From an uncultured Nitrospirales bacterium (GTDB taxonomy: Bacteria > Nitrospirota > Thermodesulfovibrionia > UBA6902 > BMS3Bbin08): a stretch of DNA of 64,000 bases. A program made the translations under genes and the position numbers. The stretch spans positions 28,720 to 92,719 of the forward strand of contig CAZNPC010000001.1 of NCBI GenBank assembly GCA_964574765.1, read 5' to 3'. The notes under the pieces were generated by a model that saw only the letters and a program-made list of their open reading frames with translations, was not told the DNA's origin and did no database searches. Below are positions 32,951-33,579 of this stretch, piece after piece. Positions within the stretch are counted from its first letter, which is position 1. Each line of letters begins with the position of its first letter.

Positions 32951-33010
32951 GATAAATACCGTTAAGTGGTTTAGGCGTTAAGTCGTTGAGTCGTTCAGTA
33001 GTTCCAACTT

Positions 33011-33040
33011 AACCACTCTACCATTTAACTACTTGATTAT
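33011..33040. repeat. 30-bp direct repeat, left copy, flanking the first 4HB gene
   Basis: aaccactctaccatttaactacttgattat versus 33509-33538 aaccacttaaccatttaactacttgactac (27/30). Inverted fragments gttaagtgg lie nearby at 32961 and 33493. Confidence 0.6.
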
Positions 33041-33080
33041 TTGTCCACTCGGCCACTCAACCAGTCAATTATCCCCCCAG

Positions 33081-33461
33081 TTAGACATTTAATTTTCTTG
33101 ACTCCAGATACTTTATATACCCGTTAAGCTTCCTGATTATTACAAAAACTTTCTTTTTAAAATCATCAAATGCAACATTTTTAATGTAGCCTTCATCAAG
33201 AGCTACGGTTAGATGGTCAATTATTTCGTAAAGGCTCCCTCTGGACTGGCGGCAGAACTGAATGTTCTCCTGAAAATGATACCGTCCATATCCTTCTGCA
33301 ATGTTAGCAGTTACAGATCTCGATGATCGTATCATTTGATCGGTTAGCCTGTATTTTTCTTCGGAAGGGAAGGTCTTAACGAGAGTCGATATTTCTTTTC
33401 TGAAATTCCTGGCCAACTGCCAAATTTCCAAATCCTCAAATGTAGATTTTGTGTCACTCAT
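33081..33461 (-). CDS. four-helix-bundle protein (23S rRNA intervening-sequence protein family)
   Basis: 126 aa. FEDLEIWQLARNF ... NIAEGYGRYHFQE ... SRGSLYEI motifs of the TIGR02436/PF05635 family. Inserted between wzm and wzt and flanked by 30-bp direct repeats. Confidence 0.7.
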   Translation of the reverse strand: MSDTKSTFEDLEIWQLARNFRKEISTLVKTFPSEEKYRLTDQMIRSSRSVTANIAEGYGRYHFQENIQFCRQSRGSLYEIIDHLTVALDEGYIKNVAFDDFKKKVFVIIRKLNGYIKYLESRKLNV

Positions 33462-33508
33462 TTTTCCTCCCTAAATGCGTTTAGTTGTTCAGTAAGTGGC
33501 TACTACTC

Positions 33509-33538
33509 AACCACTTAACCATTTAACTACTTGACTAC
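33509..33538. repeat. 30-bp direct repeat, right copy, flanking the first 4HB gene
   Basis: See 33011-33040. Confidence 0.6.
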
Positions 33539-33579
33539 TCAACTATTTGACCACTTAACTACTCGACTATTCTCGGTCT

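Follow-up and report, generated by a model that had tools for sequence, protein, structure and literature searches.

The window analysed here is a stretch of 64,000 nucleotides (64 kb) from an uncultured Nitrospirales bacterium (contig CAZNPC010000001.1, positions 28,720 to 92,719 of the forward strand), in which a small gene for a four-helix-bundle protein is inserted between the transporter genes wzm and wzt. The insert is probably a promoterless, horizontally exchanged selfish gene cassette related to the intervening sequences (IVSs) of 23S rRNA, which, judged from sequence comparison, would make it an IVS-type selfish element outside rRNA. It would consist of a 5' array of a degenerate 8-nt unit, a Shine-Dalgarno sequence, an open reading frame (ORF) of the PF05635 family and a 3' array that contains both the unit and its complement, and would occupy the few bases that normally part wzm from wzt. 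The comparison of loci described below shows that ORF and arrays form one heritable unit, which is found in many unrelated contexts and is almost always co-oriented with the upstream gene.

The wzm-wzt cassette

The four-helix-bundle gene (33081-33461, minus strand) encodes a protein of 126 aa that matches PF05635, the family named 23S rRNA-intervening sequence protein, over the whole profile (positions 1-106 of 106; E 4.9e-33, 114 bits with a cut-off of 33.8) as well as TIGR02436 ("four helix bundle protein"; E 6.2e-32, 110 bits, cut-off 24). By sequence match, the nearest solved structure is 2GSC (XCC0516; E 2.6e-11, residues 8-120), a four-helix bundle that assembles into a homopentamer. 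The upstream neighbour wzm (33580-34461; ABC-2 type permease, PF01061, E 3e-14) and the downstream neighbour wzt (31730-32950; ABC ATPase with a Wzt C-terminal domain, PF00005 and PF14524) are encoded on the minus strand like the cassette gene, and these domains agree with the original prediction, which had placed a 126-aa gene of the IVS-protein family between wzm and wzt. The insert does not lie in a 23S rRNA gene, and Rfam gave zero family matches, rRNA included, anywhere in the window. Exact-protein look-ups with the four-helix-bundle protein and with Wzt returned no record.

Both flanks of the gene are tandem with an 8-nt period (32960-33003 and 33502-33571, Tandem Repeats Finder). Read in the sense of the gene, the degenerate unit is GTYRARTR, and each flank runs through about eight sense units and then three to five antisense ones. 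The 5' flank (33462-33579, minus strand) comprises about eight GTYRARTR units (33502-33571), about three antisense units (33478-33500) and the Shine-Dalgarno sequence, and in the 3' flank (32951-33080, minus strand) sense units (33007-33070) are followed by antisense units (32960-33003), with the array ending 9 nt short of the wzt start codon. The sense-then-antisense order in each flank allows a local hairpin to form, makes the flanks direct repeats of each other and renders the 5' array complementary to the end of the 3' flank. Direct repeats of 30 bp had been noted previously and are indeed present, with copies AACCACTCTACCATTTAACTACTTGA at 33011-33036 and AACCACTTAACCATTTAACTACTTGA at 33509-33534 that match at 25/27 positions, but they simply mark where two arrays of 8-nt units match best and are not target-site duplications. 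Each copy is the core of a 76-nt direct repeat, D1 (32997-33072 and 33495-33570, 72% identity), which exists because both flanks are arrays of one degenerate unit.

The inverted gttaagtgg fragments that had also been reported are found as GTTAAGTGG/CCACTTAAC at 32961-32974 and 33506-33519 and are 93% complementary. Longer inverted arms span the ORF, one pair of 39 nt (32965-33003 and 33525-33563, 74% complementary) and a second of 34 nt (76% complementary). Complementary termini that are able to form a stem enclosing the ORF are therefore present, with modest support for the wzm-wzt copy; in the minimum free energy RNA fold of 32945-33585 (z-score -2.07) the 5' and 3' arrays are base-paired with each other. 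With one mismatch allowed, the pattern GTTRAGTRGTYRAGT occurs eight times in the window, always in the two flanks, where 0.04 occurrences are expected.

The start codon of the cassette gene is preceded by a strong Shine-Dalgarno sequence, GGGAGG (33466-33471). A consensus scan of the wzm-wzt interval detected neither a sigma-70-like promoter nor an intrinsic terminator and hence gave no sign of the promoter whose presence in the cassette had earlier been raised as a question, and the 3' hairpin is not followed by a T run. The best sigma-70-like match of the region, TTGACA-17-TATGTT with an upstream TG (34511-34539, minus strand; a consensus match only), lies upstream of wzm and is likely to be the source of the cassette-bearing transcript.

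The junction in related lineages

A scan of a genome collection with Wzm returned six loci. In bacterium BMS3Bbin08 (GCA_002897775.1), which NCBI taxonomy places among the unclassified bacteria, wzm, cassette and wzt are arranged as in the window and the repeats are present. The downstream flank is identical to 32951-33080 of the window at 116/131 aligned positions, and the upstream array is about 100 nt longer than that of the window, as two insertions. The original prediction had regarded the same gene at the same place without repeats as the mark of an ancestral and not an inserted gene; the relatives carry the gene with its repeats. In three further lineages (L017, L110 and L111) the cassette lies immediately upstream of wzt. 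The junction is empty in the more distant L013 and L014, where wzm and wzt are 4-5 nt apart, and the window itself holds a second wzm/wzt pair (50621-51535 and 49335-50615, minus strand) with a spacing of 5 nt and no insert, in keeping with the premise that the two genes normally adjoin each other. This pair, which encodes proteins of 304 aa and 426 aa, the latter with Wzt_C (Pfam domains assigned via the matching contig L001), serves as an internal empty-site control. In L012, whose Wzm is 58% identical to that of the window, the junction is filled by an unrelated gene for a 120-aa GxxExxY protein (TIGR04256, E 2e-44, at 2362-2724), which is flanked by CACAGATR-type units and a strong hairpin. 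The existence of filled, empty and GxxExxY-filled junctions implies that the wzm-wzt junction has been colonised.

The cassette and its neighbours have diverged to very different extents. Between the window and BMS3Bbin08 the cassette ORF is 95% identical at the DNA level, compared with 79% for both wzm and the alignable part of wzt, and the proportion of synonymous differences (pS, NG86) is 0.13 in the ORF as against 0.60 in wzm and 0.73 in wzt; the remaining genes that are common to the two loci show 67-79% DNA identity. Across five lineages (W1, BMS3Bbin08, L017, L110 and L111) the cassette ORFs share 92-100% DNA identity and the adjoining wzt genes 69-88%, two pairs yielding no alignment of wzm or wzt, and in the comparison of L110 with L111 the ORF is 100% and wzt 88% identical. 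The housekeeping protein FabF of the window has a best non-self match of 84% identity in a collection of 5.8 billion proteins, and all FabF relatives with a taxon-specific name are assigned to Nitrospirota or Thermodesulfovibrionia; unlike FabF, the four-helix-bundle protein has relatives at 90-98% identity. These comparisons show that the cassette shares a far more recent ancestor across lineages than its neighbour genes do, and that several lineages related to the window organism have exchanged it horizontally. A less likely alternative would be that the genomes are closely related as a whole, with hyper-divergent alleles at wzm and wzt only and a cassette that displays the divergence of the genomic background, against which speak both the best match of FabF and the 67-79% identity of the other shared genes.

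Relatives in other operons

A metagenome scan that was seeded with an alignment of relatives yielded 80 loci encoding proteins 57-93% identical to that of the window. Neighbouring genes are co-oriented with the cassette gene at 69/73 upstream and 58/69 downstream positions. Among the 56 non-redundant loci for which both neighbours were called, the orientations are (+,+) in 45, (+,-) in nine and (-,+) in two, and (-,-) in none, which means that a cassette gene antisense to two co-directional genes was found in 0/56 loci. The neighbours cover more than 80 Pfam families and the pairs that are split include gmd-fcl, leuC-leuD and paaA-paaB, with an excess of Gmd upstream (11/60 loci) and of epimerase or fcl-type genes downstream (9/58).

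The arrays recur with the gene. The heptamer GTYRART is enriched about 25-fold at -175 to 0 and also just after the stop codon, and its complement about 40-fold at +0 to +175 and also just before the start codon, a general symmetry with the sense unit on the upstream side and the antisense unit on the downstream side. A strong period of 7-9 nt was detected in 59/155 flanks, compared with 26/1117 control segments. Complementarity between the upstream and downstream flanks exceeds that of dinucleotide shuffles (z below -2 in 65% of 63 loci, median -4.1), and in 22 loci a cassette's own downstream flank ranks among the top five of 63 possible partners, where about five such loci are expected. Where the units deviate they change jointly on both sides, GGTAATTAG occurring with CTAATTACC, TTGGTTAA with CCAATTAA and GGTGAGTA with TACTCACC, and in several loci two or three cassettes lie within 8 kb of one another, every one of them with a unit of its own.

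A second cassette is present in the window itself. As had been noted earlier, a second member of the protein family (52526-52915, minus strand, 129 aa) is embedded in repeats. Its product is 38.5% identical to the first and matches PF05635 (E 1.1e-29, 103 bits) and TIGR02436 (97 bits), and the gene is inserted, in the same orientation, between gmd (53211-54353) and an fcl-type epimerase gene, likewise a pair that is normally adjacent. The 5' flank (52916-53210, minus strand) is made up of heptamers of the GAGGNNN type, part of which form 5.5 tandem copies of a 40-nt unit (52918-53136) and so duplicate the Shine-Dalgarno region of the gene, and the 3' flank (52398-52525, minus strand) is a hairpin of GAGG-type units and their CCTC-type complement, whose RNA fold (52399-52525) has a z-score of -2.9. 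The ORFs of both cassettes have a G+C content of 35-37%, compared with 38-45% in the neighbouring genes.

The repeat unit is characteristic of the protein and not of the place. The clade of the second copy carries GAGG-type heptamers at gmd-fcl and upstream of mazG alike, its relatives upstream of mazG in two other genomes (76% identical) being flanked by AAGAGGN and CCTC units. GxxExxY genes in two different contexts lie between sense and antisense arrays of CACAGATG-type units, and one of them (L035, 2076-2507) shares a gmd locus with two four-helix-bundle genes. A plasmid search revealed only distant relatives of less than 45% identity, of which a four-helix-bundle gene on a Calothrix plasmid has GGGTGTA/TACACCC arrays and another on a Riemerella plasmid GGTTYAAG/CTTRAACC arrays. 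Taken across these loci, the repeat unit is shown to track the protein clade and not the host site. The PADLOC defence models matched neither of the two four-helix-bundle proteins nor the GxxExxY protein, which presumably adopts a PD-(D/E)XK-like fold.

Proposed expression and movement of the cassette

It is proposed that transcription from the wzm promoter reads through into the cassette, whose own ribosome-binding site would serve for its translation. In the polycistronic transcript the complementary arrays would fold into stems that bracket the ORF, in the manner of the terminal inverted repeats of IVSs, and by analogy with these RNase III may cut the stems. Such cutting would free the RNA of the cassette, give the separated wzm and wzt messages structured ends and in this way keep the cost to the operon of the host low.

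The cassette encodes no recombinase, the four-helix-bundle gene being its sole ORF. The best guess for its movement, which is speculative, is that recombination between the directly repeated flanks excises a circle carrying one array, and that this circle could then integrate at similar arrays or swap alleles through them. Alternatively, the enzyme might be supplied in trans. The presence of two unrelated cargo proteins in the same vehicle speaks against the cargo protein as the mobility enzyme. A transposase of the Y1 type (IS200/IS605-like) was rejected for this role as the window lacks a counterpart and, of the metagenome loci, L057 alone shows a match, which is weak; a Y1-type transposase gene (L003/L004, 1809-2507) is situated 2.5 kb upstream of the BMS3Bbin08 cassette.

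A wider generalisation may be drawn, though it is offered tentatively and is as a whole rather unlikely to hold. Together with their inverted arrays of 7-9 nt units, the PF05635 and GxxExxY genes would constitute one very widespread, so far undescribed class of mobile elements without recombinases that colonises operon junctions, with a preference for those of nucleotide-sugar and polysaccharide genes. The ORF-bearing IVSs of 23S rRNA would be its landing in rRNA, the arrays and not the cargo would determine mobility and tolerance, and the hairpins of heptamers without an ORF in the window would be miniature derivatives.

Evidence against a selfish cassette and alternative explanations

Several observations weigh against an exchanged selfish element. 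No target-site duplication is evident at the array boundaries, and there is no second copy of the wzm-wzt cassette or of the octamer array in the window. The local hairpins of the wzm-wzt cassette barely surpass shuffled sequences (z -1.9 for the 5' flank; -1.25). In the metagenome loci the long-range duplex has no asymmetry between sense and antisense (30/63 loci), so that a role at the level of RNA is not distinguishable from one at the level of DNA, and the differences between sense and antisense that are seen in local hairpins are an effect of G+U composition. The case for horizontal exchange is built on the genes of the locus and FabF and not on genome-wide divergence. Identical proteins are always found in one context (nine contigs for P0003; 24 for P0171), which gives no sign of recent transposition, and in the pair L045-L066, which share their context, the divergence of the cassette equals that of its neighbours (pS 0.65, 0.58 and 0.69), so that cassettes can evidently pass vertically for long periods. 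The lack of a second copy and of target-site duplications, the single contexts and the L045-L066 pair together suggest that cassettes are long-lived residents that are rarely moved or exchanged. The evidence shows horizontal exchange and many contexts of insertion and not active hopping. The description of the insert as a small mobile or selfish cassette in the original prediction is therefore sustained with regard to exchange, pS discordance and empty junctions, and not with regard to recent transposition.

The strong association with nucleotide-sugar and polysaccharide genes could likewise reflect a host function instead of parasitism. Taken further, the gene might be an ordinary, vertically inherited accessory gene of polysaccharide operons, with a protein that serves the pathway or its regulation and repeats that act as mRNA stabilisers or processing sites and set the ratio of Wzm to Wzt. 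The position of the cassette is kept in five lineages, the family recurs at gmd-fcl and in other sugar-nucleotide contexts, the orientation is nearly always that of the operon, many intergenic heptamer hairpins without an ORF exist elsewhere in the window and the L045-L066 pair looks vertically inherited. Vertical descent is, however, at odds with the discordance in pS between the cassette and its flanking genes and with the identical ORFs of L110 and L111 beside wzt genes that are not. Nor is the cassette type restricted to polysaccharide operons, as it also occurs at leuC-leuD and paaA-paaB and upstream of mazG and of mfd, whereas distant wzm-wzt pairs and the second pair of the window do without it and L012 has an unrelated protein family at the same junction. 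We regard this explanation as quite unlikely.

It is improbable that the cassette is a non-autonomous retro-mobile element, whose Avd-like protein would bind its own RNA and recruit a reverse transcriptase from elsewhere, with the resulting cDNA entering operon junctions. The idea derives from the likeness of PF05635 to Avd, the reverse-transcriptase cofactor of diversity-generating retroelements (PMC10053308), and would fit an ORF flanked by structured RNA, the lack of a promoter-like site and the absence of antisense insertions from the 56 loci. Co-orientation is, however, equally accounted for by selection for expression, and the stems lack the asymmetry (G:U) that would be specific to RNA. 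No reverse transcriptase gene adjoins either cassette among the Pfam-typed genes within about 2 kb on each side, which encode ABC transporter, sulfotransferase, MptE-like or sugar-nucleotide enzymes, and since the unrelated GxxExxY gene rides the same vehicle, the cargo is unlikely to be a mobility factor.

Integron cassettes have core sites of consensus GTTRRRY, and their attC sites run in the order R'' (RYYYAAC) to R' (GTTRRRY). The units GTTAAGT and GTTGAGT fit this consensus and their complement fits RYYYAAC, and a promoterless ORF with an imperfect hairpin downstream is a further resemblance to an integron-type gene cassette with attC-like arrays. In each flank of the present cassette, however, GTTRRRY precedes RYYYAAC, which is the reverse of attC, and the units of other clades (GAGGNNN, GGGTGTA, CGGAATT and CACAGATG) fall outside the consensus. 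Most of the cassettes examined are single in ordinary operons and do not form arrays with an integrase and attI alongside; a few loci contain two or three in a stretch of 8 kb. No intI/attI cassette array lies beside the cassettes of the window, whose immediate neighbours are wzm, wzt, gmd and fcl (no search for integrases was made in the remainder of the window). The integron gene cassette was rejected on the order of units, the non-consensus units and the lack of an adjoining integrase, and is considered highly improbable.

A remnant of a diversity-generating retroelement, in other words an orphan avd gene, is hardly credible and was likewise rejected, as membership of the family is the only point in its favour, as against neighbours that are wzm/wzt and gmd/fcl, nothing but short-unit arrays near the cassette, neither a reverse transcriptase nor a template/variable repeat pair beside either copy, and an operon-junction architecture that is common to hundreds of relatives. 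An insertion sequence (IS) or miniature inverted-repeat transposable element (MITE) was dismissed as well, there being no transposase ORF, no target-site duplication and no Y1 homologue in the window; the inverted arrays of the wzm-wzt cassette are built of degenerate tandem units, unlike the terminal repeats of such elements.

Relation to known systems

The closest known system to the proposed selfish cassette is the 23S rRNA IVS with an S23p/PF05635 ORF of Leptospira and Coxiella burnetii (PMC4990558), an insert of 0.4-0.8 kb that encodes the same protein family between complementary termini capable of forming a stem. The Coxiella IVS is regarded as selfish, its terminal inverted repeats form a stem that is cut by RNase III, there is evidence for its horizontal transfer, and its G+C content is 36% compared with 42.5% in the surroundings (PMC4990558). 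The cassette and the IVSs share their size, a lower G+C content, a sporadic distribution, signs of horizontal transfer and the lack of a recombinase. They differ in that the cassette lies between genes of mRNA operons and not in helix 9, 25 or 45 of 23S rRNA, and in that it is bounded on either side by arrays in which degenerate 7-9 nt units occur in both orientations, as opposed to the single 28-bp stem of the IVS. Excision of the cassette by RNase III is suggested by analogy with this system. Avd has a related four-helix-bundle fold and belongs to a related family (PMC10053308), but the cassette gene stands alone in unrelated operons with no adjoining reverse transcriptase and no template/variable repeats.

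Integron cassettes resemble the present element in their promoterless single ORF, structured imperfect inverted repeat, dependence on an upstream promoter and diversity of site sequences within a conserved architecture. They differ from it in that the structured repeats of the latter lie on both sides, have a unit order opposite to attC and belong to elements that are mostly scattered singly. Cyanobacterial STRR heptamer arrays, REP/BIME elements and MITEs are short intergenic hairpin-forming repeats of variable copy number and likewise employ short tandem units of the 7-nt class, of which the window also contains ORF-less versions. The cassette arrays by contrast bracket a conserved protein gene and have a unit that tracks the protein clade, and they have no associated Y1/RAYT transposase in the window. 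The GxxExxY genes (TIGR04256) encode an unrelated protein but travel in a vehicle of the same kind, in which a small ORF is enclosed by CACAGATG-type arrays in sense and antisense.

By itself the wzm-wzt locus is nothing out of the ordinary and resembles thousands of entries in the databases, and it is the regularities of gene and arrays at the level of the class that appear to be undescribed so far. The searchable literature yielded no description of repeat-flanked PF05635 cassettes, which is not proof of novelty; what is written about the family concerns rRNA intervening sequences, the Avd proteins of diversity-generating retroelements and incidental annotations. In Bacteroidota, cyanobacteria, Nitrospirota, Planctomycetota and many uncultivated lineages, the four-helix-bundle and GxxExxY genes rank among the most frequent small genes that lack an explanation. 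Should gene and arrays prove to be a single mobile unit that settles at operon junctions, these genes would receive a common explanation, and the rRNA IVSs, the origin and spread of whose ORF-bearing forms have been an open question since the 1990s, would be tied to a far more numerous set of elements residing in mRNA operons. It would also become clear why metagenome contigs so often end at such genes, and gene callers would be warned of a source of error, such as the fcl ORF described below, which extends too far into an array. By parting genes that are normally translationally coupled, cassettes may also have an effect on O-antigen operons.

Neighbouring genes and further repeats of the window

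The true start of wzm is probably the ATG near 34425, which follows AAGGAG, as suggested by comparison of the N-terminus with that of L012. A motif, CGTTCAGATTNTGAACGTTCAYAATTTGAACATA, is present upstream of wzm (34483-34513) and of a gene for an HTH-domain protein (55843-55885), is also kept in BMS3Bbin08 (L003, 3277-3353; 83%) and adjoins the promoter-like site at 34539-34511. Its recurrence suggests that it is probably a common promoter or operator of polysaccharide operons.

In the gmd operon, the ORF of the fcl-type epimerase gene (51441-52481, minus strand) has its first 28 codons read from the cassette array, and its Epimerase domain starts at residue 37, which points to 52397 or 52391 as the probable true start; the public gene call on contig L001 gives the epimerase the same over-extended length of 346 aa. 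Across the 40-nt repeat this contig is 98.9% identical to the window and 40 nt shorter, which may represent a copy-number polymorphism, and it ends inside the array. Close homologues of both four-helix-bundle genes are mostly found on contigs of about 1 kb, which fits assembly breaks at arrays, and cassettes may be a systematic cause of metagenome contig ends. The operon of gmd, the second four-helix-bundle gene and fcl is headed by a gene for a NusG-family paralogue of 163 aa (54663-55154, minus strand). Specialised antiterminators of the NusG kind occur for polysaccharide operons, and this paralogue could be one of them and perhaps the reason why hairpin-rich inserts are tolerated in the gmd operon.

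Intergenic heptamer hairpins without an ORF, in which ATAGCTC units face GCTATGA, were observed at 4059-4170, 19162-19241 and 58610-58705. The RNA fold of 4050-4180 has a z-score of -4.9, and the latter two share a near-identical core of about 75 nt and are thus copies of a small dispersed repeat. Such hairpins may be miniature relatives of the cassettes. Arrays of AATTAAC/GTTAATT heptamers beside a G+C-rich hairpin (CCCCG...CGGGG) are found at 2940-3010 and 58050-58121 as similar sequences in opposite orientation, and a CAATTGA-type array (678-710) lies just upstream of an acyl-carrier-protein gene. G+C-rich short tandem units occupy the intergenic stretch at 59840-59951, comprising two copies of TCAGTGCC, 2.4 copies of the 18-nt unit GCCAGTCTATGCTTGCCT and 2.5 copies of TGGCATGA.

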